From: Anaerolineales bacterium
Lineage (GTDB): Bacteria > Chloroflexota > Anaerolineae > Anaerolineales > Villigracilaceae
DNA length: 64,000 nt
Direction: 5' to 3'
NCBI GenBank assembly: GCA_016934715.1
Contig: JAFGSI010000011.1
Span: forward strand, 2,227 to 66,226
Both the position numbers and the translations under genes were made by a program. The first letter of the stretch is position 1, and each line of letters opens with the position of its first letter. Positions 7,661 through 24,141 of the stretch are shown in pieces. The notes below the pieces were generated by a model. The model was given only the letters and a program-made list of their open reading frames with translations. It did not search any database and was not told where the DNA came from.

Positions 7661-8282
7661 CCACCAGGTAGTGCGTTCGGGCCTGCGCATGCTGCTGGCC
7701 AGCGAGAGCGACGTCGAGATCACCTGCGAGGCCGGGACGGCCAGGGAAGCCATCGCCGCCGTGGAAAACTGCCGCCCCGACGTGGTCCTGATGGACATCG
7801 GCCTGCCCGATATGTCGGGCATCGCGGCCACCCGGGCGATCAAGAGCGCCCACCCGGAGGTGGCCGTGGTGGCCCTGACGATCCACGAGGACGAGGAGTA
7901 TTTCTTCAAGATGCTCGAGGCCGGAGCCGGCGGCTACGTCCCCAAGCGAGCCGCGCCGGAGGAGCTGCTGACCGCCATCCGGGCCGCGGCCCGGGGCGAG
8001 GTCTACCTCTACCCGTCGATGGCCAAGCTGCTGGTCAAGGACTTCCTGGCCCAGGAGCGCCCGGAGGAGGGTGTGACTTCGCTCGATGGCCTGACCGATC
8101 GCGAGCAGGAGGTTCTGCGCCATGTGGCCGAGGGCGCCACCAACGACGAGATCGCCGAGATTCTGGTCATCAGCCCGAAAACGGTCGCCCGGCACCGCGA
8201 GAACATCCTGCAGAAACTCAGCCTGCACTCGCGGGCCGAACTGGTGCGTTACGCCATCCGGAAGGGGATCATCAAGGCCTAG
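7632..8282 (+). CDS. Response regulator, NarL/LuxR family
   Basis: Receiver domain IRLLLVDDHQVV...DVVLMDIGLPDMSG plus a LuxR HTH, LTDREQEVLRHVAEGATNDEIAEILVISPKTVARHRENILQKL. It overlaps the end of the kinase gene. Confidence 0.9.
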   Translation: MTIRLLLVDDHQVVRSGLRMLLASESDVEITCEAGTAREAIAAVENCRPDVVLMDIGLPDMSGIAATRAIKSAHPEVAVVALTIHEDEEYFFKMLEAGAGGYVPKRAAPEELLTAIRAAARGEVYLYPSMAKLLVKDFLAQERPEEGVTSLDGLTDREQEVLRHVAEGATNDEIAEILVISPKTVARHRENILQKLSLHSRAELVRYAIRKGIIKA

Positions 8283-8319: not shown

Positions 8320-8343
8320 TTTGATTGGGCATCTTTTCACAAT

Positions 8344-8379
8344 CTCCGGACCCACAGGTAGGGTCCGGAGAGTATTTTT
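8344..8379 (+). terminator. Rho-independent terminator after the first two-component operon
   Basis: A 10-bp stem (ctccggaccc / gggtccggag) with a 7-nt loop, followed by agtattttt. Confidence 0.7.
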
Positions 8380-8503
8380 CCTCCGACAGAAGTTGAAACG
8401 TGGGCTGCGGCTCCCACGGCAAAGATTGGGCACCCGCCGAATTGTCTGCGCAGGACGGATCCCGTACACTATAAGTGAAAATCATAACGAAAGGAGCGCT
8501 GCC

Positions 8504-8623
8504 ATGGAAAGCACACTGATGGTCATCCTATTCACGATCGTCCGCCTGGGGGTCCCGATCGGCCTGCTGCTGGCCATCGGGGAGGCGATCCGCCGCCGCA
8601 ACCGCAAGAGCAGCCTTGTGTGA
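8504..8623 (+). CDS. 39-aa single-TM peptide (MESTL paralogue 1)
   Basis: AAGGAG sits 7 nt upstream of the ATG. The product is MESTLMVILFTIVRLGVPIGLLLAIGEAIRRRNRKSSLV. Its first 15 nt are nearly identical to the start of the next gene. Confidence 0.5.
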   Translation: MESTLMVILFTIVRLGVPIGLLLAIGEAIRRRNRKSSLV

Positions 8624-8629
8624 GACAGT

Positions 8630-8956
8630 ATGGAAAGCACGCTGTTTGTCGTTCTCGGTCTGCTGCTGCGGATCGGACTCCCGCTCGGGTTGACGATCCT
8701 GGTCTTTGCCCTGCTGCGCCGGTTGGACCAGCGCTGGCAGGCAGAGGCCAGGGCCTCCGTCCCGGTGGTCCCCGCCTCGCAGAAACCCTGTTGGGAGGTC
8801 AGGGGATGCCCGGAATGCCAAAGGAAGGATTGCCCGGCGGCGAAAAATGCCAGGACGCCCTGCTGGCAGACCTTCCGTTCCCGGGAAGGGACCTTGAAAG
8901 AGGCCTGTCTGGATTGCGACGTTTTCCGCCAGGCACCGCCTCCGGTGCGGGCGTGA
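8630..8956 (+). CDS. Small membrane-anchored Cys-rich protein (MESTL paralogue 2; two CW motifs, 7 Cys)
   Basis: 108 aa. An N-terminal TM segment MESTLFVVLGLLLRIGLPLGLTILVFALL is followed by PCWEVRGCPECQRKDCPAAKNARTPCWQTFRSREGTLKEACLDCDVF. It starts 6 nt after the stop of paralogue 1. Confidence 0.6.
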   Translation: MESTLFVVLGLLLRIGLPLGLTILVFALLRRLDQRWQAEARASVPVVPASQKPCWEVRGCPECQRKDCPAAKNARTPCWQTFRSREGTLKEACLDCDVFRQAPPPVRA

Positions 8957-8984
8957 TTTTTAGCCAAATGAGGAGATGCCGATT

Positions 8985-9926
8985 ATGAACAAACGCGAAC
9001 GTTTTGCCCTGGCAGCGGTTTTCGCCCTGCTGGCCGCGGGTGTGACCCTGGTGATGGTCCAGGCCAAGGCCGAGGCCCCGGCCCCAGCCGTCCAGGAACA
9101 GGAACCCTTGAACTGCTCCGAATGCCACCAGGACTTCCAGATGGAATGGGCCTCGGGGGCCCACTCATCGGCGACCAACGACCCGATCTTCGCCCAGGCC
9201 TGGGCCGATCAGGGTCAGCCCGGTGCCTGCATGGTCTGCCATGTCACCGGTTACGATCCCGGCACCGGCACCTGGGAACAGGACGGGGTGGCCTGCACAG
9301 CCTGCCACAACCCGGTCCCGACCAATCACCCCGAGGAACCCATGCCGGTGCAGGACACAACCGAACTCTGCGGCCAATGCCACAGCGACGCCCGCTTCGG
9401 ATGGCAGGAATGGCAGACCAGCACCCACTACCAGCGCGGCATGGACTGCACGGTCTGCCACGACCCGCACTCGGCCTCGCTCAAGAACGTCGAGGGCCTC
9501 GAGGCCCAAGGCCCCTCCGGCCTGTGCGTCAACTGCCACCGCGACTACAACATGGACTTCCCCTACTCCAATCATGCGATGGCCGGCCTGAACTGCGTCG
9601 ACTGTCACCTGCGCCACTTCGGCTCCTCTGGCGGCCGCACCATCCATACCATGCCCGATCACAGCTTCACCGCCAGCCTGACCTCCTGCACCTCCTGCCA
9701 CGACCGGGAAATGCACGGCCCGACCGATGCCGCAACCGGGGCCGAGATCACGACCCAGGCGGTTGTCCCGGCGACGAACGGCGCACTGGCCGAAGAACCC
9801 GCCCCGGTCAGCCCATACGGCTTCGCCGGCCTGGCCGGCCTGCTCGGGTTGGCTGGCGGCATGGTCCTGGCGCCCTGGTTGGAGCGAGCCTACCGCAAGC
9901 TGTCCCAAAAGGAAAAGTCGTCATGA
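8985..9926 (+). CDS. Octahaem c-type cytochrome with N-terminal signal/anchor and C-terminal TM helix
   Basis: Eight CxxCH motifs: CSECH, CMVCH, CTACH, CGQCH, CTVCH, CVNCH, CVDCH, CTSCH. The C-terminal hydrophobic stretch is GFAGLAGLLGLAGGMVLAPW. I chose the ATG at 8985, 9 nt after GAGGAG; the ORF opens at 8976. Confidence 0.85.
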   Translation: MNKRERFALAAVFALLAAGVTLVMVQAKAEAPAPAVQEQEPLNCSECHQDFQMEWASGAHSSATNDPIFAQAWADQGQPGACMVCHVTGYDPGTGTWEQDGVACTACHNPVPTNHPEEPMPVQDTTELCGQCHSDARFGWQEWQTSTHYQRGMDCTVCHDPHSASLKNVEGLEAQGPSGLCVNCHRDYNMDFPYSNHAMAGLNCVDCHLRHFGSSGGRTIHTMPDHSFTASLTSCTSCHDREMHGPTDAATGAEITTQAVVPATNGALAEEPAPVSPYGFAGLAGLLGLAGGMVLAPWLERAYRKLSQKEKSS

Positions 9927-10693
9927 GCGAAACCAACCTCAACCGTCGTGATTTCCTGAAACTGGCCGGCGTCAGCGTGGCCGCCATCGGTGGGTTGCAG
10001 ATCTACCGCCGGGCGGAGGCCTCCAGCGGAGGCCCGGAGGGCGAGCACCAGTGGGCAATGGTCGTCGACCAGTCCAGGTGCACCGGCTGCGATTACTGCA
10101 CCCTGGCCTGCCGGGCTCACAACGACATCAACCCCGAGATCTCCTGGAACCAGGTCATCGAAACAGGTGCGATCAGCGGCAAGCAGGTCTACCTCGCCCG
10201 GCCGTGCATGCACTGCGAACACGCCCCGTGTGTGGATGTCTGCCCGGTGCAGGCCAGCACCTACCGCCCGGACGGCATCGTGCAGATGGATTACGATCGC
10301 TGCATCGGCTGCCGCTACTGCGAGGTGGCCTGCCCCTACGGGGCGCGCTCCTTCAACTGGGAGGCCTTCACCGGTCGCAACCCGGCCGTCCCGCAGTGGG
10401 GGCAGCCCGAGGTCGCCCGTCGCCCGCGCGGCGTGGTCGAGAAGTGCTCCTTCTGCTCCCAGCGCATCGACCGCGGCCTGGCGCTCGGCCTGACCCCCGG
10501 CATCGATCCCGACGCCACCCCGGCCTGCGTGGTACGCTGCCCGACCGGGGCGCGCATTTTTGGCGATCTGAAGGACCCCGAATCAAATGTCAGCCAGCTC
10601 CTGCGTGGGCATGCCTCTTTCCGCCTGCGCGAAGACCTGGGCACCAGGCCGCGGGTCTACTACCTGCCGCCCAATGGCTCCCCGGAGGCCTGA
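9923..10693 (+). CDS. 4Fe-4S ferredoxin-type iron-sulfur subunit (NrfC/HmcB/PsrB/DmsB family) with Tat signal
   Basis: MSETNLNRRDFLKLAG is a twin-arginine signal. The Cys clusters are CTGCDYCTLAC, CMHCEHAPCVDVCP, CIGCRYCEVACP and CSFC..CVVRCP. An ATGA overlap links it to the upstream cytochrome stop. Confidence 0.85.
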   Translation: MSETNLNRRDFLKLAGVSVAAIGGLQIYRRAEASSGGPEGEHQWAMVVDQSRCTGCDYCTLACRAHNDINPEISWNQVIETGAISGKQVYLARPCMHCEHAPCVDVCPVQASTYRPDGIVQMDYDRCIGCRYCEVACPYGARSFNWEAFTGRNPAVPQWGQPEVARRPRGVVEKCSFCSQRIDRGLALGLTPGIDPDATPACVVRCPTGARIFGDLKDPESNVSQLLRGHASFRLREDLGTRPRVYYLPPNGSPEA

Positions 10694-10694
10694 G

Positions 10695-11954
10695 ATGAAG
10701 AAGATCGCCAAACTGAAACTGACCCCCTGGATGGCCTGGGTCGGCCTGCTGGTCACGGTCATCGCCGCCGGTGTGGCAGCCGGGCTGATGGTCTTCGTGA
10801 AGGGGCTCTCGCTCACCAATCTGACCGACATGGTGCCCTGGGGCCTGTGGATCACGATCGACCTGTCGTCGATCGCCATCAGTGCCGGCGCCTTCAGCCT
10901 GTGTGCGGCTGTCTACCTGCTGGGCCTCAAGCGCTATCAACCGTTGGCTCGCACGGCGACCTTCATCGGCCTGATCGGCTACACCATGGCCCTGTTGACC
11001 CTGCTGATGGACATTGGCCGCCCCGACCGATTCTGGCACGCGGTGGTCTACTGGAACCGGCACTCGCTGCTCTGGGAAGTGACCATGTGCGTCACGCTTT
11101 ACCTGGCCGTGCTGGCGCTGGAAGCGATGCCGATCTTTGCCCAGTTCGAGTGGCTGCGTACCCGCCTGCCCAGACTGGCCGCCAGGATGGAACGCGTCCA
11201 CCACTACGCACCCTACCTGGCGATCGTCGGGTTGGGGCTGTCGATGCTGCACCAGTCCTCGCTGGGGGCGGTCTACGGCGTGCTCAAGTCACGCCCGTTG
11301 TGGTACCGGCCCGACATCTCGATCCTGTTCATCGTCTCGGCCGTGGCCGGCGGGATGGCCCTGACCGTCTTCGCCTCGATGCTCTCGGCCCGCATCACCC
11401 GGCGTGCCAACATCGACGACGGGCTGCTCGAGCGGGTGGCGTATTTCATCGGCTGGATCCTGGTCGGCTACCTGTATTTCCGCTTCTGGGACGCCCTGTC
11501 AATGACTTACACTTACGAACCCGGCCGGACCGAGGGCCTGCGCATGCTGACCAGCGGCCCGTTCGCCTTCAACTTCTGGATCGGCGAGATGCTGCTGGGG
11601 GCGGTGGTTCCGATCCTCCTGCTGCTGCGCCGCCGGACCCGTCAGGTTCCCTTCTGGCGCATGCTGGCCCTGCTGCTGGTCGTCGGCGGCGTGGTGGCCT
11701 ACCGCTGGGACACCAACCTGTCCGGCCAGTTGATCGTGCTGTCCTATCTGCCGGGTGAACCGGCGGTCGCCTACACCCACTACGTCCCTTCACTGATCGA
11801 GTTCGCCAGCGGGGCGGGCGTGGTGGCCTACGGCCTGCTGGCCTTCTCGCTCGGCGTGCGCTACCTCGGGGTGGTCAACCACGAAGCAGCCGCCGAGGAG
11901 CACTTCGAGGAGATGCCGGCCCGCGAGGCCCTCCCGGCCCCGACCGGAGATTGA
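10695..11954 (+). CDS. NrfD/PsrC/HmcC-family polytopic membrane quinone-interacting subunit
   Basis: 419 aa and highly hydrophobic. VPWGLWITIDLSSIAISAGAF and DIGRPDRFWH are typical NrfD-family motifs. GGAGG lies 6 nt upstream of the ATG. Confidence 0.8.
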   Translation: MKKIAKLKLTPWMAWVGLLVTVIAAGVAAGLMVFVKGLSLTNLTDMVPWGLWITIDLSSIAISAGAFSLCAAVYLLGLKRYQPLARTATFIGLIGYTMALLTLLMDIGRPDRFWHAVVYWNRHSLLWEVTMCVTLYLAVLALEAMPIFAQFEWLRTRLPRLAARMERVHHYAPYLAIVGLGLSMLHQSSLGAVYGVLKSRPLWYRPDISILFIVSAVAGGMALTVFASMLSARITRRANIDDGLLERVAYFIGWILVGYLYFRFWDALSMTYTYEPGRTEGLRMLTSGPFAFNFWIGEMLLGAVVPILLLLRRRTRQVPFWRMLALLLVVGGVVAYRWDTNLSGQLIVLSYLPGEPAVAYTHYVPSLIEFASGAGVVAYGLLAFSLGVRYLGVVNHEAAAEEHFEEMPAREALPAPTGD

Positions 11955-12050: not shown

Positions 12051-13748
12051 CTATTGTTCCGGCGCGCCGGCCAGGATCCATTGGATCACGATGTCCAGCT
12101 CCTCGGGCGACAGGTTGACGAAGTGGCTGCCGCGCTGGACCTGGACCAGCAGGCTGGCGTCAGGATTCCCGGCCAGGATCACCGGCCCGTCGTCCCCGCC
12201 AGCCACCGCACCGGAGTGGGTGCTCAGGTCAAGCCCGGCGTTCGGGGCGGCGGGATTGTGGCAGGCGGCACAGCGCAGGGAAAAGAGCGGACCCACATTC
12301 GCGGCAAAGGTCGGCGTCCCGACCACCGCAGCCAGGGTCGGCTCGGGGGAGGGGGGCGGCAGCTGATCGCGCAGGGTCTCGCGCAGGGCCGGGGCGTCGA
12401 AGGCGGCGTACGTGTAGGCGCTGCCATGACAGGCGCTGTTCGAGCAGAAGGAGGTGTTGGATGTTCCGCCCGGATCGCCGGTGGTGTGGCAGTTGGAGCA
12501 GGTGGCGTCGAAGACCGCGTTGTGCAAGGCGATCCAGTTGGGGTTGAGGTGCGACCCGGGCTCCGGCCCGCGGCTGATCTCGATAGTGGCGACGAAATCG
12601 CCCTCCCCGGCCACGACCGGGATCGAGTGGCACAGGTTGCACTCCAGGCGGATGGCTTCCTGGTCCAGGTTCAGGTGCGTGCCGTCATGGCAGCGGAAGC
12701 AGCCGGGAGCGGTGATGTGGCCAAGGTTGTTCGGATGGGTCGTCCAGTCGACCTGCTGGTCGTGGAAGACCGAGCGGTCATAGATCTCCTGCACGACGAT
12801 CACCGCCGCCGCGAGCTGCTCCTGGTTCCCGGCAAAAAACTCCGGCAGGTTCTGGCGGTAATAATCGGTCAGGCTGGCGATCCCCTCCATGGCCGCAGCC
12901 CGGGATTCGTAGCCAGCCTTGAGCACCCGCAGCGCCTGGCGGCGGATCTGGGGGATGCCGGCATCGATCAACCCCAGGGTCAGGGCCCGGTCGACCGACT
13001 CTTCGGGGGTCAGGAACGCGTGCGTGACCCGGTTGTGACAGGTGATGCAGTCCATCTCGATCAGCTGACTCTCGTCGAGCGTTGCCGGGTCGAAGTCGGA
13101 TTCAATATCGATGTACTCGGTAGAAGTGCCGTCGTTGTTGACCACCCGCACATAAGGGATCTCCTGGCGGGCCAGGTCATTGGCGTAGTAATAGACCGGG
13201 TTCTCGATATGCCAGTGGATGCCGCGTCCCAGCCCCTCGCGGGCGCTGCCGCCCCCGGTGTGCATGATCAGGTAGGTGTCGGCCTGGGTGTTGCCGTTAT
13301 CGTTGCCGAAATGGGTGATCACCCGCAGGCTGTCGTCGGAGAAGGTCTGCGGGGCATGGCAGCGCTCACAGGTCACCTGCGCCGGACGCGAGCGGGTGGC
13401 CCGGATGGGGAATTCATAGGTCTGGAAGACCATGGCGGTGAGCTCGCGCACGTCCTCCGATTTGCGGCGCAGCTGCTCCCCGAGCGAGGCGCGCCCGATG
13501 TGGCACTCGCTGCAATAGACATTGGCATGCGGCGAGAGCAGGTAGGTCACATCCTGGGGCGGCATGGTGTGGCAGGCCGTCCCGCAGAAGGTCGGGGAGT
13601 TGGTGTATTCCCAACCGTACGTGCCGCCGACCACCAACCCGATGGCCAGCAGGCCGAGAATGGCATAGGGCAGGATGGTGACCCAGCGCGGTGAACCCGC
13701 CGGCGGGAAGAAAAAATTCCGGGTCGCCTGCTTGAAGCGTTTGACCAT
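12051..13748 (-). CDS. Membrane-anchored multihaem cytochrome: NapC/NirT-like N-terminus, extra haem sites and a C-terminal PSCyt1-like monohaem module
   Basis: A TM segment ILPYAILGLLAIGLVVGG is followed by CGTACH, CSECH, CERCH, CITCH, CFRCH, CNLCH, CSNCH, CSNSACH (CX4CH) and CAACH. The C-terminus is GPLFSLRCAACH...ILAGNPDASLL...WILAGAPEQ. I chose the ATG at 13748, 8 nt after GGAGG. Confidence 0.8.
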   Translation of the reverse strand: MVKRFKQATRNFFFPPAGSPRWVTILPYAILGLLAIGLVVGGTYGWEYTNSPTFCGTACHTMPPQDVTYLLSPHANVYCSECHIGRASLGEQLRRKSEDVRELTAMVFQTYEFPIRATRSRPAQVTCERCHAPQTFSDDSLRVITHFGNDNGNTQADTYLIMHTGGGSAREGLGRGIHWHIENPVYYYANDLARQEIPYVRVVNNDGTSTEYIDIESDFDPATLDESQLIEMDCITCHNRVTHAFLTPEESVDRALTLGLIDAGIPQIRRQALRVLKAGYESRAAAMEGIASLTDYYRQNLPEFFAGNQEQLAAAVIVVQEIYDRSVFHDQQVDWTTHPNNLGHITAPGCFRCHDGTHLNLDQEAIRLECNLCHSIPVVAGEGDFVATIEISRGPEPGSHLNPNWIALHNAVFDATCSNCHTTGDPGGTSNTSFCSNSACHGSAYTYAAFDAPALRETLRDQLPPPSPEPTLAAVVGTPTFAANVGPLFSLRCAACHNPAAPNAGLDLSTHSGAVAGGDDGPVILAGNPDASLLVQVQRGSHFVNLSPEELDIVIQWILAGAPEQ

Positions 13749-13828
13749 GTGCGCCACCTCCAGAATAAATGGAGCGGGCTTCCAGGCCCTTGGCGCGGCC
13801 TGGAGGCCGGATCCTACCTGTAATTATA

Positions 13829-15055
13829 TTACCGTTCCGGGGCCCCGGCGTCGATCCAGTCGCGGACCCGCTCCAGATCTGCGGAACGCAATGTGGCAGG
13901 ATGGCTGCCCTCTGCCTGGACGAGGACCAGCAGGCTGTTGATGCTGTCACCCGGCAGGATCACCGCTCCGTTACTGCCGCCCTGCAGGGCCTCGGCATAG
14001 CTGGTCAGCGACAGGCCAGTCGGTGCGCGGCTGGCATGGCAGATGCCGCATTGCTGCTGGAACAGGGGCCCGATGGCGGCCTCCCAGGTCAGGGGACCCG
14101 GAGCCGGGGTCGGGAGCGGGGTTGGGGTCTGCGGGACGAAGATCTCGATCTGGGTTTCGGGCGGGGCGATCGTGGCGGTTGTCTCGGCGCCGACGAAGCC
14201 GTAGACGCCGAACAGCATGGCAACCGTCAACAGGCCGGCGATCGGCCAGTAGATGCGCTGGCGACGGCGCAGGGTCCGGGAGTCGACCGGCCGCTCGGCC
14301 AGCCCGGCCTTGATGTCGGCCAGTTCGAGAGGATGCTCGTGCAGCATCTCCTCCTCGCTCAGCCTGCCGGTGAACATGCTCTTGTTGAACCTGCGGATGT
14401 GGACACTGTACATGTGCCAGATGAAGATGGCTGCCACCGCCAGCAGGGCCTCGCCGCCATGGGCCGCCTTGGCTGCCGGGATGGCCTCGCCGGGCAGGAT
14501 CCGGGCAGTGGCGATCGGGTTCCACATCATGAAGCCGGTCAGGCCCATGATGATCGTGCCCCACACCAGGGCCCAGTATTCCAGCTTCTCTTCGAAAGTG
14601 TAGCGGCCCATCTGCGGACGGGTCCTGGCAACCCCCAGGTTGTACAGGAAAGCCTGCCAGGCATCCTTGACATCCTTGATGACGGGCAGCATCGTCAGCG
14701 GGACACGCAGGACGAAGATCTTGGAACCGATGTCGATGATGTGGTAGATGGTCAAAAGCATCAGCACCACGGCGAAAACGTGGTGGAGGCTGCGGGTCAT
14801 TTCGATGCCGCCGAAGAAGCGGATCATCGCCTGGGCCCAGCCGGCCAGCGGAAACTTCTGTGGCAGGCCGGTGAGCCCCAGCAGTGAGAAGGAGGTCAGG
14901 AGCAGGAAGTGGGCAATCCGCTGAGTCCAGTGGAAGCGCGCGTAGACCGCCGGCTGCTTCTTGGCCGGGGCTTTCGTCCTTCCGATCGCCTTCCCCTTGG
15001 CGGTCCCTTTCTTCACTGCCGGGGCCGCCGGTTTGGGAGTGGATTTCTTGCTCAT
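13829..15055 (-). CDS. b-type cytochrome (FdnI/HydC-like membrane dihaem family) fused to a C-terminal PSCyt1-like c-type monohaem module
   Basis: A Lys-rich N-terminus is followed by RFHWTQRIAHFLLLTSFSLLGLTGL and further TM helices with conserved His residues. The C-terminus is GPLFQQQCGICH...ILPGDSINSLL...WIDAGAPER. An ATGA overlap links it to the upstream gene. Confidence 0.75.
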   Translation of the reverse strand: MSKKSTPKPAAPAVKKGTAKGKAIGRTKAPAKKQPAVYARFHWTQRIAHFLLLTSFSLLGLTGLPQKFPLAGWAQAMIRFFGGIEMTRSLHHVFAVVLMLLTIYHIIDIGSKIFVLRVPLTMLPVIKDVKDAWQAFLYNLGVARTRPQMGRYTFEEKLEYWALVWGTIIMGLTGFMMWNPIATARILPGEAIPAAKAAHGGEALLAVAAIFIWHMYSVHIRRFNKSMFTGRLSEEEMLHEHPLELADIKAGLAERPVDSRTLRRRQRIYWPIAGLLTVAMLFGVYGFVGAETTATIAPPETQIEIFVPQTPTPLPTPAPGPLTWEAAIGPLFQQQCGICHASRAPTGLSLTSYAEALQGGSNGAVILPGDSINSLLVLVQAEGSHPATLRSADLERVRDWIDAGAPER

Positions 15056-16212
15056 ACGCGCTTCGCTCCTTTACGACGGTCGATCAACCGGCGGACAAAG
15101 TCGCTGATGACGAAGAGGATCATCGGGCCGAGCACACCAGGGATGAAGAATTTGTAGAACAGGTTGACATAGTAAACCAGCGGGTAATTCTGCGAATCGG
15201 GGATGTAATGGCTCATCCAGGCGTCGGGGAAGTTCGCGCTGGCATCGGGGTGGCACTGCTGGCAGCGAATCAGGATGTTCTCCTTCATTGCCAGGCCGTT
15301 GACCGGATCATCCACCGGGGCGATGGCGTGGATGCCGTGGCAGTCATAGCAGACCGGCTTGTTGGTCGGCTGGTCAGGCGAGGTGCTTTCGAACAGGGTG
15401 ACGGTCGTGCCGTGGAAGTCGGCCACGTAGGTGTTCAGGACCTGGGTCGAGATGCCGTACGGCTGCATGCGCTCGGGATCCGTGTGGCAGCCGGCACACA
15501 ACAGCGGCGAGTTGAGCCGGAATTCGTTGGTCGTCGGATCGCCGATGTCGTGGACGCCGTGGCAGTCCATGCAGGTCGGGACATCGGGATTGCCCTCCCC
15601 GGTCAGGGCCGCGCCGTGTACGCTGTGCGCATACTGATCGTAGATGGTGCTGTGGCAGCGGGCACAGGTCTGCGGAATGTGCAGGCGCGCCTCCGGAAGC
15701 AGGGTGCCACTGCGGTCGGTGATCGGGGTCTGGGTGTGAGGGTTGTGGCAGTCGGTGCAGACGGCGGCGTTGGTGTTCCCGCCCGCCAGGGCTCGCTGGT
15801 GGACCGAGTCGAGGGTCGCGTCGTACTGTTCGGCGTGGCAGGCCTGACAGACAGTGTACATCTCGAGGGTGTATTCGCGCGCGCTGCGGGCAGTCAGTTC
15901 GGGGTGCGGGAACTGGGAAATGGTGGTATGACAATCTGTACAGGGCAGGTTGCTGTGGACCGAGTCGTCGTAGTGGGCCGGGTCGATGGTCAGGACCAGG
16001 GCCCCCCCGTCGGGCAGCGGGCGCTGCTGGCCGGGCCGGCCATGACAGGTCAGGCAGGCCTCGTTCTGGGGCAGGTCCGCCGGGAGGGGAGAGGGGGAGG
16101 CTCCCGCCGGCCTGGTCAGGATCGCCAGGACCGTCCCCAGCAGCGCGATCCCGACCACGAAGATCGGGATGCGCAGCCTGCGGGTGGAAGAATGGGTACC
16201 GGGTGCGTGCAT
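15052..16212 (-). CDS. Nonahaem c-type cytochrome with N-terminal anchor and C-terminal TM helix
   Basis: Nine CxxCH motifs: CLTCH, CTDCH, CQACH, CTDCH, CARCH, CMDCH, CAGCH, CYDCH, CQQCH. The C-terminal hydrophobic stretch is FFIPGVLGPMILFVISDF. I chose the ATG at 16212, 6 nt after GGGAG. Confidence 0.85.
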   Translation of the reverse strand: MHAPGTHSSTRRLRIPIFVVGIALLGTVLAILTRPAGASPSPLPADLPQNEACLTCHGRPGQQRPLPDGGALVLTIDPAHYDDSVHSNLPCTDCHTTISQFPHPELTARSAREYTLEMYTVCQACHAEQYDATLDSVHQRALAGGNTNAAVCTDCHNPHTQTPITDRSGTLLPEARLHIPQTCARCHSTIYDQYAHSVHGAALTGEGNPDVPTCMDCHGVHDIGDPTTNEFRLNSPLLCAGCHTDPERMQPYGISTQVLNTYVADFHGTTVTLFESTSPDQPTNKPVCYDCHGIHAIAPVDDPVNGLAMKENILIRCQQCHPDASANFPDAWMSHYIPDSQNYPLVYYVNLFYKFFIPGVLGPMILFVISDFVRRLIDRRKGAKRV

Positions 16213-16287
16213 TGCGTTCTCCCTTGGGAAATTTGGATCACGAATGAGTGCTGGAAAAACACGGCGGGCCTGGGATGGGCCGTCCCC

Positions 16288-16331
16288 AACCAAAAGAGGA
16301 GAAGCGAGGGCAGGCGGCCTGCCCTCGCTTC
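16288..16331 (-). terminator. Rho-independent terminator after the decahaem lipoprotein gene
   Basis: A near-perfect palindrome gaagcgagggcaggc g gcctgccctcgcttc. On the minus strand it is followed by TCCTCTTTTGG. Confidence 0.65.
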
Positions 16332-16344
16332 CGATCGAACTGGA

Positions 16345-18468
16345 TTACGGCCGGGTCATGGCAGACACGTCGACGTTCATATAGACGAGCGTGTCGTACA
16401 GGACCTGGATCACGTAGCGGCCGTTGTGGGCAAAGGCGCCCGGATCCTTCTGGAAGTACTGGTAGTTGTAAGCCGCGATCAGCAGGCGCGGGGACCAGGT
16501 GGAGTACCCACCCTCGCCCTCGTCGACCAGGCCGTTGGCATTGGCATCCGCAAAGAAGTACGGATAAGCGGTCGGGCTGTAAGCGATCGGTGTGCTAAGC
16601 GTATCCGCCGCATAATCCTGGATGGCCAGGTAGAGCAAGTCGGCCATGGTAGCGATCTCCTGGTCGAGCGGCTCGGCAGCGTCGCCGTCACCGTCGTAAT
16701 CGATGGCATTGGCGGTCATGCGGATCTCGCGCACGTCGCTGATGCCGGTGTGGCAGGTGGCGCAGGTCGAGAGAGCAATTTCCAGGGAGTGGGCATCGTG
16801 GCAGGACAGGCAGGTGTTGAGGTTGCCGCCCATACTGGCCGGGTGATCATTCTGACCGAAGTACGCATTGCCGGCGAACTGGTACATGCCCTGGGCTTCG
16901 TCGCCGAAGAGCGTGGCGCCGGCCGCAAAGTAGTGGATGTTGCGGAAACGGATGGACGCCGAAACCTCATCCGCCGGCGTGCTGCCGATCACACGGTTGA
17001 CGCTGGCCATCGACTCGCGCCCCTGGTGGCAGGTGATGCACAGGTTGCTGTCGGCGCCCTCTCCGAAGGTGACGGACAGGCCGCTCGGCATGCTGACCGA
17101 ATCAACCGTGTAGCGGTTGGGCCAGTTGGTCTCGTCGTGGCAGGTCGAGCATTGGAAGCCGTTGGAGGCCGGCTGGGCGATCGTGCTGCCCGCATTGGCC
17201 AGGAACATGGGCAGGCCGGTGGCGGTGTGACAGCGAACGCAGCCGTTCGGTACGGTGCCGAAATCGGGATCGCCGTCCCAGTGGCGGAAGGGCTCGGTGT
17301 TGCCGGCGAAGTGCCCGGCATCCTGGCGGCGCATGGCGCTCATATCGATCGGGTTGGACAGCTGGGTATTCAGGTCAGCCAGCGAGTCGAACAGCAGCTG
17401 GATGATGTACTTGTTGCCATGGGCGAAAGCCCCTGGGTCCTTGACCGACAACTGGTAGTTGTAGGCGGCGGCAAGCAGGCGCGGGGTCCAGGCAGTGAAC
17501 CGATTGGGGACGGTGGCCTCATCTTCATCCAGTATGCCATTGGCATTGGTGTCGATGAAGAAGTACGGGTAGGCGTCCGGCGAGTAGGCAACCGCCGTGC
17601 CGGCAATCTCAACGGCGTAAGCCTGGATGCCGGCCAGGAGCGCTGCCTGCATGCCCTGGATCTCGTAGTACATGCCTTCCGTGAGGTTGCCGTCGCCATC
17701 GTAGTCGACCGTGGAGGAGGGCTCGCGCACGTCGCGCAGGGCCTCGACCGTATCGACCTCGTGGCAGAACGAGCAGGTCTCGAGCTGGATTTCGAGGGTG
17801 TGCGAATCGTGGCAGTCCACGCAGGTGCTGACGCCCTCGACGTGCTCATAGCGGGAGTCGTAGGACATGCCTTCGTACTGGTAGCCGCCTCTGGCCTGGC
17901 CGCCATAGAGGGTGGCCGCCGCGGCGAAATAGTGGATGTTCAGGAAGCTGAGGTCGGCGCTGACCGTATCAGGAGCCATGCCGGCGGTGGCTTCCGCCAC
18001 GCTCCCGCCAGACTCACGTCCCTGGTGGCAGACCATGCAGCGAGCCTCAGGGCCGAGGCCGGTGACGGTCACGCCGGACGGGAAGGTGACACTGGAGAGA
18101 GTCTGGGTGGCATCATTGTGGCAGGTGGTGCAGGAGATGACGCCGCCGGGTGCCGCAACGTCAGCATCCACCATGCCGGCTGCGCTGCCGTCACCGCCCA
18201 GGAAGTCAACGTAACCAGCCGGGCTGTGGCAGCGGGCGCAGTCCGCCGGAATGACGGCCGGATCGTCCCCATCCCAGTGAACGAAGGCTTCCGCCGAGGC
18301 ATCGGCGTGGGCTGAGCCGGCCCAAGCCGCCAGGAAGGGAGGTTCGGCTGCCGGAGCAGCCACCTGCCCGCCGGTCATCTCTTCGGTGGCGCCGCTTCCG
18401 CAGGCGACCACGACCGTCGCCAAAAGCAGCAAACCACCGATCAGGAAGAGCAGTCTCTTTATGGACAT
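16345..18468 (-). CDS. Decahaem c-type cytochrome lipoprotein built from two pentahaem repeats
   Basis: Signal and lipobox MSIKRLLFLIGGLLLLATVVVAC. Ten CxxCH motifs: CARCH, CTTCH, CMVCH, CVDCH, CSFCH, CVRCH, CSTCH, CITCH, CLSCH, CATCH. The two ~330-aa halves align, e.g. NIHYFAA..., DYDGDG..., YPYFF.D.NANG, AAYNYQ, DPGAFAH. I chose the ATG at 18468, 9 nt after GAGGAG. Confidence 0.85.
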   Translation of the reverse strand: MSIKRLLFLIGGLLLLATVVVACGSGATEEMTGGQVAAPAAEPPFLAAWAGSAHADASAEAFVHWDGDDPAVIPADCARCHSPAGYVDFLGGDGSAAGMVDADVAAPGGVISCTTCHNDATQTLSSVTFPSGVTVTGLGPEARCMVCHQGRESGGSVAEATAGMAPDTVSADLSFLNIHYFAAAATLYGGQARGGYQYEGMSYDSRYEHVEGVSTCVDCHDSHTLEIQLETCSFCHEVDTVEALRDVREPSSTVDYDGDGNLTEGMYYEIQGMQAALLAGIQAYAVEIAGTAVAYSPDAYPYFFIDTNANGILDEDEATVPNRFTAWTPRLLAAAYNYQLSVKDPGAFAHGNKYIIQLLFDSLADLNTQLSNPIDMSAMRRQDAGHFAGNTEPFRHWDGDPDFGTVPNGCVRCHTATGLPMFLANAGSTIAQPASNGFQCSTCHDETNWPNRYTVDSVSMPSGLSVTFGEGADSNLCITCHQGRESMASVNRVIGSTPADEVSASIRFRNIHYFAAGATLFGDEAQGMYQFAGNAYFGQNDHPASMGGNLNTCLSCHDAHSLEIALSTCATCHTGISDVREIRMTANAIDYDGDGDAAEPLDQEIATMADLLYLAIQDYAADTLSTPIAYSPTAYPYFFADANANGLVDEGEGGYSTWSPRLLIAAYNYQYFQKDPGAFAHNGRYVIQVLYDTLVYMNVDVSAMTRP

Positions 18469-18667: not shown

Positions 18668-20209
18668 ATGGCCATAAATCTTCAGGGAGTTGGTGTAAAA
18701 TACCCAATAGAGTCGCTCCTCATGTCCGGGCAAGCATTCGATCAACTGCTTTACTTCATCTACTTTGTCTATGGACTGGCCTTTTTCGGCATGGGCCTGA
18801 CCATGGCACTCGAATCGGGCCGTTCGCCGGCCCTGGCGGAGGCCCGTCTCCTGCGGCCCCTGGCCGCCTTCGGCCTGATCCACGGCTCCCACGAGTGGCT
18901 GGAGGCCTACCTGCTCCAGGCCCACGCCACCGGGGCTGCTCTGCCGGGCTGGCTGGACTGGGCCCGCTGCACAATCCTGGTGACCTCCTTCCTGTTCCTG
19001 CTCAACTACGGGATCCGCACCTTCCAGACACCCGGGTACAGACCGTTGCTCGGGATGCGCCTGGGAATCGCCGTCCTCGGGATCTACAGCCTGGTCATCC
19101 TGGCCAGCGCCATGCTGACCTACTGGAACGGCGAGGTGCCCTGGGCCCGCCTGCTCGACAGCCTGGCCCGTTACCTGCTGGCCGTGCCGGGAGCGGCCCT
19201 GGCAGCCCTGGCGCTGCGCTTCGAGTCGGACGAAGCCAGGAGCCGCGACCGCCGAACACTGTCGCTCTCCCTGACGGTGGCCGCGGCCGGCTTCGGGGTC
19301 TACAGCCTGACCCAGGTCTTCGTCCCGCCGCTGGAGATGGCCCCGGCCAGCTTCCTCAACACGCTCAGCTTCCAGAGCCTGGCCGGCTTCCCGATCCAAC
19401 TGGTGCGCTCGGCGATGGCGGTCATGATCACCCTCAGCCTGGCCCGTGCCACCCAGGAGGTCGAAAAGGAACGCCAGCAGAAGCTGGTGACCGCCCAGCA
19501 GGCCCGCCTGGAGGCCCTCGAGCAGGTCCAGGCCGAACTGACCGGACGCGAGACCTTGCGGCGTGAACTGCTGCGCCATACCGTCCGGGCCCAGGAAGAG
19601 GAGCGCGGCCGGATCGCTCGCGAGCTGCACGACGAAACCGCCCAGGTCCTGGCCGCCTTCGGCCTCGACCTGGCCACCCTGCAGACCATGCTCCCGGTCC
19701 GTCCGGACGCGCAGGCCCTGGTCGGCAGGCTGCAGGCGCACAGCCGGGAGATATCGCAGAGCCTCTACCGCCTGGTCCACGATCTGCGCCCGGCCCAACT
19801 GGACGATCTGGGTCTGGTCCCCGCCCTGGACTACCTGGGCGAGCGTGCGGCAGCCAAGGGACTGGAGCTCCGCCAGCAGATCGTGGGCGAGGTCCGCCGG
19901 CTGGAGCCCGTGATCGAGACAGTGCTCTTCCGGGTCGCCCAGGAGGCGCTCAACAACGTGGCCCGCCACGCCAGCACGAACCAGGCCGAGATTTGCCTGG
20001 TGTACGAGACTCAGGAAGTGACCCTGTGGGTTCGCGACCCGGGCCGCGGATTCAATCCCACCCAGTCCTTCATTCCACCGCGCGGCTGGGGCCTGGCCGG
20101 GATGCGCGAACGGGTCGAATCAGTCGGCGGACACTTAAAAGTTACCTCCGCCCCAGAGGAGGGAACCACCGTCGAGGTGGCCATCCCGGTCTTTGACTTG
20201 ATTCCCTGA
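18668..20209 (+). CDS. Sensor histidine kinase (HisKA_3 type), paralogue of 6146..7660 with the same membrane sensor domain
   Basis: YGLAFFGMGL...LRPLAAFGLIHGSHEWLE matches YGLAFFSMGL...LRPLAAFGLVHALHEWLE in the first kinase. The H-box is ERGRIARELHDETAQ. The start is uncertain; an alternative ATG lies at 18722. Confidence 0.85.
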   Translation: MAINLQGVGVKYPIESLLMSGQAFDQLLYFIYFVYGLAFFGMGLTMALESGRSPALAEARLLRPLAAFGLIHGSHEWLEAYLLQAHATGAALPGWLDWARCTILVTSFLFLLNYGIRTFQTPGYRPLLGMRLGIAVLGIYSLVILASAMLTYWNGEVPWARLLDSLARYLLAVPGAALAALALRFESDEARSRDRRTLSLSLTVAAAGFGVYSLTQVFVPPLEMAPASFLNTLSFQSLAGFPIQLVRSAMAVMITLSLARATQEVEKERQQKLVTAQQARLEALEQVQAELTGRETLRRELLRHTVRAQEEERGRIARELHDETAQVLAAFGLDLATLQTMLPVRPDAQALVGRLQAHSREISQSLYRLVHDLRPAQLDDLGLVPALDYLGERAAAKGLELRQQIVGEVRRLEPVIETVLFRVAQEALNNVARHASTNQAEICLVYETQEVTLWVRDPGRGFNPTQSFIPPRGWGLAGMRERVESVGGHLKVTSAPEEGTTVEVAIPVFDLIP

Positions 20210-20229
20210 TCACAGGTTGAAGGGAGAAG

Positions 20230-20928
20230 GTGATGAAAAAGATCCGCCTGATGCTGGTCGACGACCACGACGTGGTGCGCGCCGGCCTGAAGTCCTACCT
20301 GCAGACCCAGGAAGACTTCGAGGTCATTGCTGAGGCCAGCAACGGCCAGGAGGCGCTCGAACGCACCCGGGATGCCTGCCCGGATGTGATCCTGATGGAT
20401 ATCACCATGCCCGGAATGGATGGGATGGAGGCCACCCGCCAGATGCGGGCCCGCAACCCGCAGTGCCTGATCCTGGCCCTGACCGTCCACGATGACAAAC
20501 AGTACTTCATGCAGATGCTGGCCGCGGGTGCCTCCGGGTACATCACCAAACAGGCTGCCCCCGACGAACTGATCGCTGCCATCCACACCATCGCCGCTGG
20601 CAACGTTTATCTCCAGCCGGCGCTGGCCCGCTGGCTGCTGGAAGATTACCAGCGCCTGGCCGGCCAGGCCGACCTGGTCGAACCGGCCTCCCCGCTCGCG
20701 GCAGAGCAGGATACCATGGTCGACCTGCAGGTGCTCAGCCAGCGCGAACGCCAGGTGCTCGAACTGGTGGCGGAGGGCCATAACAATAACGAGATCGGCG
20801 ATCGCCTGGGCCTGAGCCCCAAGACGATCGCCCGCCATCGCGAGCGCATCATGAACAAACTCAACATGCACTCGCGCACCGAACTGGTCAAGTTTGCCAT
20901 CCGCACGGGGCTGGTGCAGTTACATTAG
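20230..20928 (+). CDS. Response regulator, NarL/LuxR family
   Basis: Receiver domain IRLMLVDDHDVV...DVILMDITMPGMDG plus a LuxR HTH, LSQRERQVLELVAEGHNNNEIGDRLGLSPKTIARHRERIMNKL. Confidence 0.9.
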   Translation: MMKKIRLMLVDDHDVVRAGLKSYLQTQEDFEVIAEASNGQEALERTRDACPDVILMDITMPGMDGMEATRQMRARNPQCLILALTVHDDKQYFMQMLAAGASGYITKQAAPDELIAAIHTIAAGNVYLQPALARWLLEDYQRLAGQADLVEPASPLAAEQDTMVDLQVLSQRERQVLELVAEGHNNNEIGDRLGLSPKTIARHRERIMNKLNMHSRTELVKFAIRTGLVQLH

Positions 20929-21018
20929 AAAACGCTCATGAGACCACATTCTCACCCCGGTTTAATCTCCATATGGATAATTGACCTTATTCCCTTTCGA
21001 TCGGTAGGAGGAATATCC

Positions 21019-21498
21019 ATGCGACTTAAATTCATCCTGGGCGGAGTTGCCATCCTGGCCGCCATCGTCTTCCTGATCGCCACATCCATGAACGCCAGTG
21101 CCGAATACTTCCTGACGGTCGACGAGGTCCAGGCCCGCCAAAGCGAGATCGTCGGGCGCAATCTGCGCATATCCGGCGCCGTGATTGGTGATACAATTTC
21201 CTATGAGCCGGATTCCCTGACCCTGACCTTCGTGATCGCCCATATCCCGGGCGGCAATCGCGAGATCGAAGCCCAGGGCGGACTGGCCCTGGTGCTGCAT
21301 GAAGCGGTCACAGATCCGACCCGGACCCGCCTGACCGTGGTCTACATCGGTCCGAAGCCGGACCTCCTGCAGGATGAGGCCCAGGCGATCGTCACCGGCC
21401 AGTTGGGCGACGACGGCATCTTCTACGCGGACGAACTCCTGCTCAAGTGCCCGACCCGCTACGAGGAGGCGCTCCCCGAGCAGGCCCTCGAGAACTAG
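21019..21498 (+). CDS. ccmE: Cytochrome c maturation haem chaperone CcmE, Cys variant (CxxxY instead of HxxxY)
   Basis: An N-terminal TM anchor and OB-fold region are followed by FYADELLLKCPTRYEE. This aligns to the canonical ADE(V/L)LAKHDExY with His replaced by Cys. AGGAGG lies upstream of the ATG at 21019. Confidence 0.8.
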   Translation: MRLKFILGGVAILAAIVFLIATSMNASAEYFLTVDEVQARQSEIVGRNLRISGAVIGDTISYEPDSLTLTFVIAHIPGGNREIEAQGGLALVLHEAVTDPTRTRLTVVYIGPKPDLLQDEAQAIVTGQLGDDGIFYADELLLKCPTRYEEALPEQALEN

Positions 21499-21584
21499 TT
21501 TGACAGATGTGACGGCTTTCGAGGTACGAGCGGAACTCCCGCTGGGAACTTCGCGAAGCCGTTCCTTTGTTTTAAGGAGTCGCC

Positions 21585-23591
21585 ATGTTCATTGATTTTG
21601 GCTTCGGCATCCTGGTCCTGACCCTGGCGGTGACGCTGTTCAGCATTGCTGCAGCGCTGTACGGCTTCTACACAGGATCCCCACGCTGGGTCGAAAGCGC
21701 CCGCCGGGCGATGCAATTGACCTTCCCGCTGATCACCCTGGTGGCCCTGGCCCTGATCTACCTGCTCGTCAGCGGCCATTACGAGGTCCAGTTCGTCTAC
21801 TCGGTGACCAGCAACGAGATGCCCCTGTACCTCAAGATCACAGCCCTGTGGGGAGGGCAGGAAGGATCGCTGATCCTGTGGGCCTGGCTGCTGGCAGTTT
21901 TCACCAGCGCCGTGACCCTGCGCAAGTGGGATCGCGACCAGGAGCTGCTGCCCTGGGTGATCATCGTCACGGCGATCACGCTGGCCTTCTTCCTGGCCCT
22001 GGTGATCTTCTTTGAAAATCCCTTCGCCCGCTGGTGGATCCTGCCCGACAACACCCCGGTGGCGGCCATGTTCCAGCCGAGCGGAGCCGTGCCAGCCTTC
22101 CCGAACAACGGCGAGGGCCTCAACCCGCTGCTGCGCCACCCCGGGATGATCATCCACCCGCCGATGCTCTACCTGGGCTTCGTGGCCTTCGTGATCCCCT
22201 ACGCCTTCGCGATTGCCGCCCTGGTCACCGGCCGGACCGATGACCGCTGGCTGCGCCTGACCCGCCGCTGGACCCTGATCGCCTGGCTGTTCCTGTCGAT
22301 CGGCCTGGTGCTGGGTGCCCGCTGGGCCTACGACGTGCTTGGCTGGGGAGGGTACTGGGGATGGGACCCGGTCGAGATCGCCGCCTTCATGCCCTGGCTG
22401 ACCGGCACCGCCTTCCTGCACTCGGTCATGATCCAGGAGAAGCGCGGCCTGTTCAAGCAGTGGAACATGATCCTGGTCATCCTGACCTATTCGCTGGTCC
22501 TCTTCGGCACCTTCCTGACCCGTTCCGGGGTGCTTTCCTCGGTGCACGCCTTCGCCCAGAGCGCCATCGGGCCGATGTTCTTCAGCTTCATCGGAGTCAC
22601 CTTTATCACCTCGCTGGTCCTGCTCTTCCACCGCTGGAAGGACCTGACTGCCACGATTGAGATGAAATCGATGCTCTCACGCGAGGCCCTGTTTCTGCTC
22701 AACAACCTGCTCTTCATCGGCGTCCTGATCATCTGCTTCTGGGGAGTGGTCTCCCCGTTGATCTCCGAGCTGGCCACCGGCCAGAAGATCACCGTCGGGC
22801 CGCCGTTCTACGAGCGGGCCACCTCCCCACTGTGGGGCGCCCTGATGCTGCTGATGGGCGTGGCGCCTCTCTCGGCCTGGGGCAAGTCGACGTTCACCAC
22901 CCTCGGCAAGGCGCTCTGGAAGCCGGCCCTCCTGGCCGCGCTGACCCCTCTTATGCTGGCCGCCCTGGGCATGCGCAACTGGGTCGCCCTGCTCGGCTTC
23001 ACCCTGGTAGCCCTGGTCATCTTCGTCAGCCTGCACGAATACTGGCGCGGCGCCCGCGCCCGCCAGAAGGCCCAGGGCGAGGGCTTCTTGACCGCCCTGG
23101 CGCGCCTGGCTGCCCGCAACCGGCGCCGCTACGGCGGCTACATCATCCACATCAGCATGGTCATCATGGCCATCGGCATCCTGGGCATCGAGATCTTCCA
23201 GACCGAGACCCAGCGCAACATGGCGATCGGCGACCAGGTCGAGCTGGCCGGCTACACCGTGCGCTACGACTCGCTGGCCCAGTTCCCCTACAGCGACGGG
23301 CGCTTCGTCACCCGGGCGGTCATGAGCGTCTTCAAGGCAGGTGAATTCGTGGATGAGATCTACCCGCGCTACGACCTCTACCCGGGCGGCCAGCCCATGA
23401 CCATTCCAGGCGTCCGCAGCACCCTGGTCGATGACCTGTATGTGGTGCTGGTCAACTGGGAGAACGTCTCGGCCACCCAGACCCCCTTCAAGATCTATCA
23501 CAACCCGCTGGTCAACTGGCTGTGGATCGGCAGCGGCATCTTCATTCTCGGCTACCTGCTGGCCGCCTGGCCACAGAAAGAGAATGGTTAG
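21585..23591 (+). CDS. ccmF: Cytochrome c haem lyase subunit CcmF
   Basis: 668 aa and polytopic. The WWD motif is WGGYWGWDPVE. AAGGAG RBS is present. Confidence 0.9.
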   Translation: MFIDFGFGILVLTLAVTLFSIAAALYGFYTGSPRWVESARRAMQLTFPLITLVALALIYLLVSGHYEVQFVYSVTSNEMPLYLKITALWGGQEGSLILWAWLLAVFTSAVTLRKWDRDQELLPWVIIVTAITLAFFLALVIFFENPFARWWILPDNTPVAAMFQPSGAVPAFPNNGEGLNPLLRHPGMIIHPPMLYLGFVAFVIPYAFAIAALVTGRTDDRWLRLTRRWTLIAWLFLSIGLVLGARWAYDVLGWGGYWGWDPVEIAAFMPWLTGTAFLHSVMIQEKRGLFKQWNMILVILTYSLVLFGTFLTRSGVLSSVHAFAQSAIGPMFFSFIGVTFITSLVLLFHRWKDLTATIEMKSMLSREALFLLNNLLFIGVLIICFWGVVSPLISELATGQKITVGPPFYERATSPLWGALMLLMGVAPLSAWGKSTFTTLGKALWKPALLAALTPLMLAALGMRNWVALLGFTLVALVIFVSLHEYWRGARARQKAQGEGFLTALARLAARNRRRYGGYIIHISMVIMAIGILGIEIFQTETQRNMAIGDQVELAGYTVRYDSLAQFPYSDGRFVTRAVMSVFKAGEFVDEIYPRYDLYPGGQPMTIPGVRSTLVDDLYVVLVNWENVSATQTPFKIYHNPLVNWLWIGSGIFILGYLLAAWPQKENG

Positions 23592-23617
23592 GCCAGAACC
23601 CCAAAAGGCAAACCGGC

Positions 23618-24133: not shown

Positions 24134-24141
24134 GGAATCGA

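Follow-up and report, generated by a model that had tools for sequence, protein, structure and literature searches.

Can the unit that Geobacter encodes as the single-chain quinol oxidoreductase CbcL occur in a distant phylum as two separate genes? The question is raised by a pair of adjacent cytochrome genes from an Anaerolineales bacterium (assembly GCA_016934715.1), which lie in a 64,000-nt stretch of contig JAFGSI010000011.1, hereafter the window, whose positions are used for all gene coordinates. The upstream gene (15052–16212, minus strand) encodes a nonahaem cytochrome c subunit of 386 amino acids, and the downstream gene (13829–15055, minus strand) encodes a cytochrome b subunit of 408 amino acids with a c-haem tail. 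The nonahaem gene has an enclosing open reading frame (ORF) at 15052–16293 (minus strand), and its likely start is the ATG at 16212, with AGGGAG 6 nt before it; AAGGAG lies 10 nt upstream of the ATG of the cytochrome b gene. The nonahaem stop codon TGA and the cytochrome b start codon ATG overlap as ATGA at 15052–15055 of the minus strand (read as GTATGAGC, codon context CGC GTA TGA GCA) and, judged from this overlap, the two genes are translationally coupled. The ORFs, the nine CxxCH motifs and the ATGA overlap had been noted in a preliminary description of the window, and all were found at these positions.

By collinear alignment to natural fusions, the pair is the split equivalent of single-chain nonahaem-c/FdnI-type-b proteins, which supports the earlier proposal of one functional unit encoded as two genes. 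It is probable that the two proteins form a two-subunit bc-type cytochrome of the cytoplasmic membrane with the nine-haem, six-helix layout of the CbcL/MtoC/MtrH family. The finding is a variant of a known module and establishes no new kind of system: the fused CbcL/MtoC/MtrH family and split clusters of b and multihaem c genes in Geobacter are already known, and the novelty lies in recognising that an ATGA-coupled split version is a common module of Anaerolineae, and that the b subunit bears a c-haem tail that varies. Metagenome homologues of the nonahaem and b proteins number in the thousands each, at 60–70% identity; because of these numbers, and of the adjacency of the two genes in related loci, the pairing is not due to chance.

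Anatomy of the nonahaem and cytochrome b subunits

The nonahaem subunit begins with a signal peptide (residues ~1–38; 16099–16212, minus strand), which is followed by the nine CxxCH motifs (residues 53–321; 15250–16056, minus strand) at residues 53, 91, 122, 152, 183, 214, 239, 288 and 317, corresponding to a haem-motif spacing of 38,31,30,31,31,25,49,29. A C-terminal membrane helix (residues ~343–371; 15100–15186, minus strand) precedes a basic cytoplasmic tail. Conservation was judged on an alignment of 28 homologues, in which all nine CxxCH motifs are invariant, as are eight further His residues (H86, H138, H159, H199, H221, H267, H295 and H335); H103 is conserved in at least 90% of the sequences, and no conserved Met occurs in this alignment. 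The nine haems are therefore matched by nine candidate distal His, indicating a predicted all-bis-His electron-transfer chain without an open catalytic haem. A search of the PDB with the nonahaem subunit returned no solved CbcL-type structure; the best match was 28pb_A (‘Cytochrome c’, E 1e-7), the motif spacing of which (33,23,22,24,29) is unlike that of CbcL.

Residues 38–253 of the b subunit (14297–14944, minus strand) make up a four-helix, dihaem cytochrome b domain of FdnI/HydC type. Its assignment to this family, made in the preliminary description, holds: the protein scores 46.5 bits against Pfam PF01292 (Ni_hydr_CYTB / FdnI-HydC cytochrome b; gathering threshold 30.1), and in a phmmer search of PDB sequences only FdnI of Escherichia coli formate dehydrogenase-N (Fdn-N) was matched (1kqf_C, E 1.5e-8). 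In the alignment with 1kqf_C, residues H49, H91, H199 and H214 fall on FdnI H18, H57, H155 and H169, which in the Fdn-N structure bind the b haems on the cytoplasmic and periplasmic sides. These four His, whose conservation in the transmembrane helices had been named earlier as a point to check, are in place and invariant in an alignment of 23 b-subunit homologues. An AlphaFold2 (AF2) model built on a shallow alignment (predicted local distance difference test score, pLDDT, 59) places helices at residues 43–67, 84–115, 154–178, 194–217 and 259–290, and with this low-confidence model the sole significant Foldseek match in the PDB was again 1kqf_C (E 1.6e-4, target-normalised template modelling score 0.67).

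The strongly basic, Lys/Arg-rich N-terminus of the b subunit (residues 1–35) argues for a cytoplasmic location of this end; given five helices, the C-terminus would therefore emerge on the outer face, where a c-haem domain must be. The fifth membrane helix (residues 259–290; 14186–14281, minus strand), an AF2 helix whose counterpart in alignments with fused forms is their sixth and last helix, leads into a Pro/Thr-rich linker (residues 291–322; 14090–14185, minus strand) with a conserved PQTPTP stretch and pLDDT <50. The linker ends in a PSCyt1-type monohaem c domain (PF07635; residues 323–408; 13832–14089, minus strand) with one CxxCH, at residue 336, which accounts for the additional c-type haem module ascribed earlier to this subunit. 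The tail passes the PF07635 gathering threshold marginally (22.2 bits against 22.0). C336, C339 and H340 bind the haem. Because these residues and H385 are invariant across the 23 homologues, H385 is likely the distal ligand, giving His/His ligation of the PSCyt1 haem.

Beyond the four FdnI ligands, the b subunit contains further family-wide invariant His residues, namely H92, H105, H219 and H241. H105 lies in helix 2, 14 residues below H91 and level with the haem on the cytoplasmic side; fused forms, the 19-haem type among them, have it too, and FdnI does not. This residue might belong to the quinone site or serve as an alternative haem ligand.

Split and fused forms and their distribution

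When the b domain by itself was used as query in an exhaustive HMMER search, 2092 matches were obtained, among which are single-chain proteins with an N-terminal nonahaem domain. Both subunits align end to end and collinearly on one of these, the Anaerolineae fusion P0281 (MGD1992183.1): in BLASTP comparisons, the nonahaem subunit is 49% identical over 384 amino acids (E 1e-132, P0281 residues 2–374) and the b subunit 46% identical over 283 amino acids (E 4e-83, P0281 residues 359–641). On this collinear alignment, the point at which the pair is split therefore falls, in the fused form, within the cytoplasmic loop that joins helices 1 and 2. A second fusion, the 924-residue, 19-haem protein P0460, is matched by the nonahaem subunit at residues 268–647 (E 5e-32) and by the b subunit at residues 655–924, through the last helix (E 5e-33). 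P0460 is equal in length to KKN60529.1 of the published CbcL/MtoC/MtrH table (PMC6295460), and 19 of 19 motif positions agree within 1 residue. The likeness to CbcL drawn here rests on this sequence bridge via P0460 and on the published description of GSU0274.

A maximum-likelihood tree of 110 near-full b-domain representatives places these forms relative to one another. No c motif accompanies the b domain in 44 of the representatives, 52 have C-terminal tails with 1–12 CxxCH, and the remaining 14 are N-terminal multihaem fusions. The b subunit falls in a clade of 58 members (support 96/87), 47 of which are c-tailed and inside which the fused P0281 and P0316 are nested; P0460 and other forms that resemble published family members constitute its sister group. 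From the tree, with at least nine changes of fused state and with fusions nested among split forms, it follows that the split and the fused state are interchangeable within a single family. NCBIfam contains no model for CbcL, and fused relatives match generic families only.

To describe the distribution of the pair, one genome per species was scanned; at least 344 genomes encode a relative, and the best 80 loci were examined. All of these 80 are labelled as Anaerolineae, Anaerolineales, Chloroflexia or other Chloroflexota metagenome-assembled genomes (MAGs), and wherever upstream DNA was available the nonahaem gene stands immediately upstream of the b gene. An NrfH-like gene lies downstream of the b gene in most of the 80 loci, and a decahaem gene, an NrfCD/octahaem operon and a HisKA_3/NarL-type pair are often present as well but vary between loci. 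When the class was sampled evenly, the b domain (E <= 1e-40) was present in 111 of 301 genomes, corresponding to 90 of the 217 high-quality genomes and 63 of the 176 genera. The earlier suggestion of a Geobacter-style module in a distant phylum is thus true, and at the same time less striking than it seemed, since about 40% of good genomes of the class have the module and Geobacter itself has the split CbcBA. No CbcL relatives in Chloroflexi were listed in 2018 by a survey of the quinol oxidases that serve extracellular electron transfer, probably because single-chain forms were what it recovered.

Among the matches of the homologue searches there was no Geobacter or Desulfuromonadales protein, and CbcL motif spacing occurs in none of the homologues collected. 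A ‘Deltaproteobacteria’ MAG of another phylum (locus L085; a GTDB phylum of 93 genomes) has a split pair, without the c tail, next to the same kinase/regulator type. At locus L089 of a ‘Deltaproteobacteria’ MAG (GCA_016210045.1), a 625-residue fusion of a nine-haem domain with a b domain adjoins a NapC/NirT-like multihaem gene, and a split pair is present elsewhere in the genome; the motif spacing of this fusion is 26,21,30,28,30,25,30,28, which is not that of CbcL. The pairing of a CbcL-like with a NapC-like gene therefore recurs outside Chloroflexota.

These data also bear on the name that metagenome annotators use for the b protein, the gamma subunit of formate dehydrogenase. That it is such a subunit, of a formate dehydrogenase or of a hydrogenase, with the nonahaem gene an unrelated neighbour, is very improbable. 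NCBIfam formate-dehydrogenase gamma models do match, at E 5e-13 to 4e-12, but with scores far under the curated cut-offs (NF007558 49.2 versus 339; TIGR01583 46.5 versus 115.85), and although a probable selenocysteine formate dehydrogenase is encoded on another contig, no FdnG/FdnH-type genes are nearby. Moreover, the nonahaem gene is ATGA-coupled to the b gene, adjacent to it in related loci, and fused to the b domain in many lineages. The formate-dehydrogenase-gamma identity is effectively ruled out by synteny and fusions, and the b protein, FdnI-like in fold, is not a formate dehydrogenase subunit. The other-contig candidate (C60:31347–32711) is a molybdopterin-family frame of 989 amino acids with one in-frame TGA, on the basis of which it is a probable selenocysteine enzyme.

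Proposed electron path and genomic setting

The anatomy, haem-ligand conservation, homology to fused forms, synteny and distribution of the pair are direct observations; from them we infer its quinone reactivity, flow direction, redox partners and physiological acceptor. In the mechanism we propose, the exported nonahaem subunit would hold nine low-spin bis-His c haems and be kept at the membrane by its C-terminal helix, and the b subunit would contain two b haems, one near each membrane face, with its flexible linker carrying an external His/His monohaem. Menaquinol would be oxidised (or menaquinone reduced) at the b subunit; electrons would cross the membrane via the two b haems, run along the nine-haem chain, and reach extracytoplasmic multihaem cytochromes either directly or by way of the tethered monohaem. 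Anaerolineae cells are thought to be without an outer membrane. One candidate electron acceptor is a decahaem lipoprotein (lipobox VVAC) composed of two pentahaem repeats, the gene of which lies upstream of the pair (16345–18468, minus strand) and occurs in only some related loci; this protein has no sequence relative in the PDB. If quinone reacts on the cytoplasmic side, as it does in FdnI, the membrane potential would drive outward flow and no energy would be conserved; this would fit the role, of low yield and low potential, that has been proposed for Geobacter CbcL and CbcBA. Inward flow would instead constitute a redox loop.

The direction of electron flow cannot be read from sequence, and the published family survey, in which MtoC of Fe(II) oxidisers is a family member, found no feature separating quinol oxidases from quinone reductases. 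It is possible, though unlikely, that the same complex works mainly inward: electrons from extracytoplasmic sources, be they reduced cytochromes, Fe(II), humics or a partner cell, would reduce menaquinone at a site on the cytoplasm side, as FdnI does in Fdn-N, and a proton-motive redox loop would result, of the sort suggested for MtoC. The resemblance of the b domain to FdnI, a quinone reductase, extends over its full length and takes in the conserved loop before helix 3 (RYTFEEKxEYW), which aligns with FdnI GKYNAGQKMMFW; in addition, an oxidase and an ACIII-like set in the organism could take electrons. However, genes of Fe(II) oxidation, for example those of Cyc2 or MtoAB, were not seen in the window, and nine bis-His haems are expected to be of low potential, which would suit output from menaquinol; in CbcL, the periplasmic domain has nine low-spin bis-His haems with an apparent midpoint of –194 mV and donates electrons to PpcA (PMC9129911).

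The genes around the pair code for further modules that may exchange electrons with the quinone pool. Downstream lies the gene of a membrane multihaem cytochrome of NrfH/NapC type (12051–13748, minus strand; ATG at 13748 with GGAGG), a second quinol-dehydrogenase-like module whose product has seven CxxCH, one CxxxCH and one CxxxxCH motifs and matches NrfH (2j7a_C) at E 3e-10. Its PSCyt1 tail scores 37.9 bits and is 47% identical to the b-subunit tail (E 2e-22). The NrfH-like protein and the FdnI-like b subunit thus have in common both a Pro-rich linker and a PSCyt1 tail. The sequences suggest that the two have a common docking partner. Two very stable, GC-rich stem-loops bracket the nonahaem/b bicistron: one, with a T-rich tail and a 15-bp stem, lies between the decahaem and nonahaem genes (16300–16332, minus strand; –31.1 kcal/mol, z –4.65), and the other between the b gene and the NrfH-like gene (13777–13808, minus strand; –27.8 kcal/mol, z –3.62). 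These elements may be attenuators, terminators or mRNA-stabilising structures that set the stoichiometry of the cytochrome cluster.

Convergent to the nonahaem/b cluster is an operon (8976–11954, plus strand) that encodes an octahaem cytochrome c (8976–9926), an NrfC/DsrO-like 4Fe-4S protein with a Tat signal (9923–10693) and an NrfD/QrcD-like membrane subunit (10695–11954), and which is, by its predicted gene content, a third quinone-pool module. A two-component system consisting of a multi-pass membrane histidine kinase (HisKA_3) and a NarL/LuxR-type regulator is divergent from the cluster (18668–20928, plus strand), and a paralogous HisKA_3 kinase and NarL/LuxR-type regulator pair is found at 6146–8282 (plus strand), such that one kinase/regulator pair stands beside each cytochrome operon. 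Between the latter regulator and the octahaem operon are two small ORFs with similar hydrophobic N-termini (MESTL; 8321–8623 and 8630–8956, plus strand), the second of which encodes a Cys-rich protein of 108 amino acids (CPECQRKDC…C…CLDC) with no Pfam match. System I cytochrome c maturation genes for CcmE, CcmF and CcmH and a gene for a thioredoxin-like protein follow at 20938–24732 (plus strand), and just 3′ of the Ccm genes is that of a lipoprotein-like protein of 644 residues, in which two domains of class I cytochrome c are recognised (PF13442 and PF00034; 25249–27183, plus strand).

The NrfH-like and NrfC/NrfD-like neighbours, the regulators of NarX/NarL type, and a genome poor in multihaem cytochromes would all be compatible with a different role, in which the pair, as a quinol dehydrogenase, supplies an extracytoplasmic reductase, soluble or membrane-bound, that acts on a dissolved substrate (nitrite, hydroxylamine, sulfur or selenium oxyanions, or organohalides), like NrfH/NrfBCD or CymA, rather than serving extracellular electron transfer. 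We consider this improbable: neither a catalytic haem site (CxxCK, or a pentacoordinate haem without distal His) nor a molybdo- or other catalytic subunit is found in the cluster or in the conserved synteny, and all nine haems have a conserved distal His. Within the nonahaem/b cluster no catalytic subunit is encoded, the neighbours being multihaem cytochromes, the quinol-dehydrogenase-like protein and the Ccm genes.

Several observations weigh against reading the pair as a CbcL-type complex for extracellular electron transfer. The text of CbcL that was available for alignment (PMC9129911 supplement) is machine-read and unreliable; two of its four fragments (1 and 3) align at homologous positions. 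Fragment 1 aligns on residues 37–68 of our protein with 42% identity at E 0.008, and fragment 3 on residues 126–166 with 32% identity at E 0.48, both in a five-sequence database; the same unreliable fragment 3 aligns on P0460 with 53% identity (E 1e-14, five-sequence database). Narrow orthology of the b subunit to Geobacter CbcL is unlikely, because in the tree the b subunit lies in the c-tailed clade, apart from published-like forms. The single-chain AF2 model of the b subunit is poor, at the pLDDT given above. Furthermore, only nine frames with at least four CxxCH occur in the whole genome (4.09 Mb, 97.8% complete), four of them in this island, and the genome encodes an aerobic chain, with one haem-copper oxidase beside a pentahaem and a molybdopterin-like gene (an ACIII-like set). 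The organism is not a Geobacter-like specialist. Given the few multihaem frames and the oxidase with its ACIII-like set, its gene content suggests that it is probably a facultative aerobe for which the island is the main multihaem equipment.

Elsewhere in the same genome, contig C48 (174927–179296) carries an 8-haem gene followed by a 974-residue frame with seven CxxCH and a C-terminal PF01292 domain (90 bits). This c-b fusion was considered as a paralogue of the nonahaem/b pair and rejected, the similarity being distant only (E 4e-4, 5e-7). It may be a cbcB-cbcA-type fusion, a type mentioned for Chloroflexi in the CbcBA paper.

Going beyond the two-subunit bc-type cytochrome preferred here, a more speculative and rather doubtful extension would make the split pair with its tethered bis-His monohaem the main, hitherto unrecognised route by which the menaquinone pool of Anaerolineae exchanges electrons with extracytoplasmic multihaem cytochromes; the PSCyt1 domain would act as a swinging shuttle that docks the b subunit and the NrfH-like module to a common partner, such as the decahaem lipoprotein, and H105 would tune the b haem on the cytoplasmic side or act as its gate. 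Sediments, soils, digesters and anammox reactors harbour abundant Anaerolineae, whose respiratory links to insoluble or external acceptors are poorly understood. Because the split form is present in ~40% of good genomes of the class and at least nine switches between split and fused states have occurred, an ATGA-coupled nonahaem and FdnI-type b gene can serve as a sequence marker by which quinone-linked cytochrome chains of uncultured Chloroflexota may be predicted. The b-subunit tails, with 0–12 c-haem motifs, are a variable and hitherto undescribed design feature of the family.

Comparison with CbcL, CbcBA, FdnI and natural fusions

Members of the CbcL/MtoC/MtrH family have 3–23 CxxCH motifs N-terminal of the b domain, nine in the case of CbcL (PMC6295460). 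CbcL itself (GSU0274, Cbc1) is a protein of 619 amino acids with CxxCH motifs at residues 34, 57, 82, 105, 129, 158, 186, 229 and 257 and six helices, the last at 589–611 with nothing after it (PMC6295460 Table S2). The pair described here resembles CbcL in having nine outer-face CxxCH motifs, all apparently bis-His, six helices, and an FdnI/HydC-type dihaem b domain with conserved His and without a catalytic subunit; the gene setting, among other multihaem cytochrome genes, is also alike. The six helices are, however, divided between the nonahaem subunit (one) and the b subunit (five), whereas CbcL is one chain. Insofar as the CbcL/MtoC/MtrH definition specifies a single polypeptide, we file the pair as a split variant and not as a strict member. 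The b subunit also runs on into the linker and PSCyt1 domain, whereas CbcL ends at residue 619, just past its sixth helix. The motif spacing differs (38,31,30,31,31,25,49,29 here and 23,25,23,24,29,28,43,28 in CbcL), although the 31,31,25 run and the final spacing of ~28 are common to the nonahaem subunit and MtoC, and the long seventh gap is common to it and CbcL. The host belongs to the Chloroflexota, and the b domain falls in a different clade from published-like forms.

Split clusters of b and multihaem c genes have been noted in Geobacter, CbcBA (GSU0593–0594) among others. Compared by description only, CbcBA likewise has two genes, the first for a multihaem c subunit that ends in a membrane helix and the next one downstream for a dihaem b subunit; together they encode a putative quinol oxidoreductase, and a dedicated regulator lies next to them. 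CbcA has seven haems, compared to nine in the nonahaem subunit, and CbcB has four helices and three ligand His, the fourth being attributed to CbcA, whereas the b subunit here has all four FdnI His. The CbcBA regulator BccR is sigma-54 dependent, in contrast to the NarL-type regulator here, and CbcB was reported to be without sequence homology to CbcL.

FdnI (1KQF chain C) shares with the b subunit its four-helix dihaem fold and all four His ligands. In Fdn-N, a single helix of the partner subunit FdnH joins the FdnI bundle, and by analogy the anchor helix of the nonahaem subunit would join that of the b subunit. The partner is a nonahaem cytochrome here and an FeS/molybdoenzyme for FdnI, and the fifth helix and c-haem tail are additional to FdnI, which also does not have H92, H105 or H219. 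The natural fusions of Anaerolineae, Planctomycetota and others (for example P0281 and P0409, the latter MBK8975337.1) are single chains without the PSCyt1 tail and have a haem spacing of 38,31,30,23,31,25,49,28; with 46–49% identity over both parts, they are the closest relatives of the split pair.

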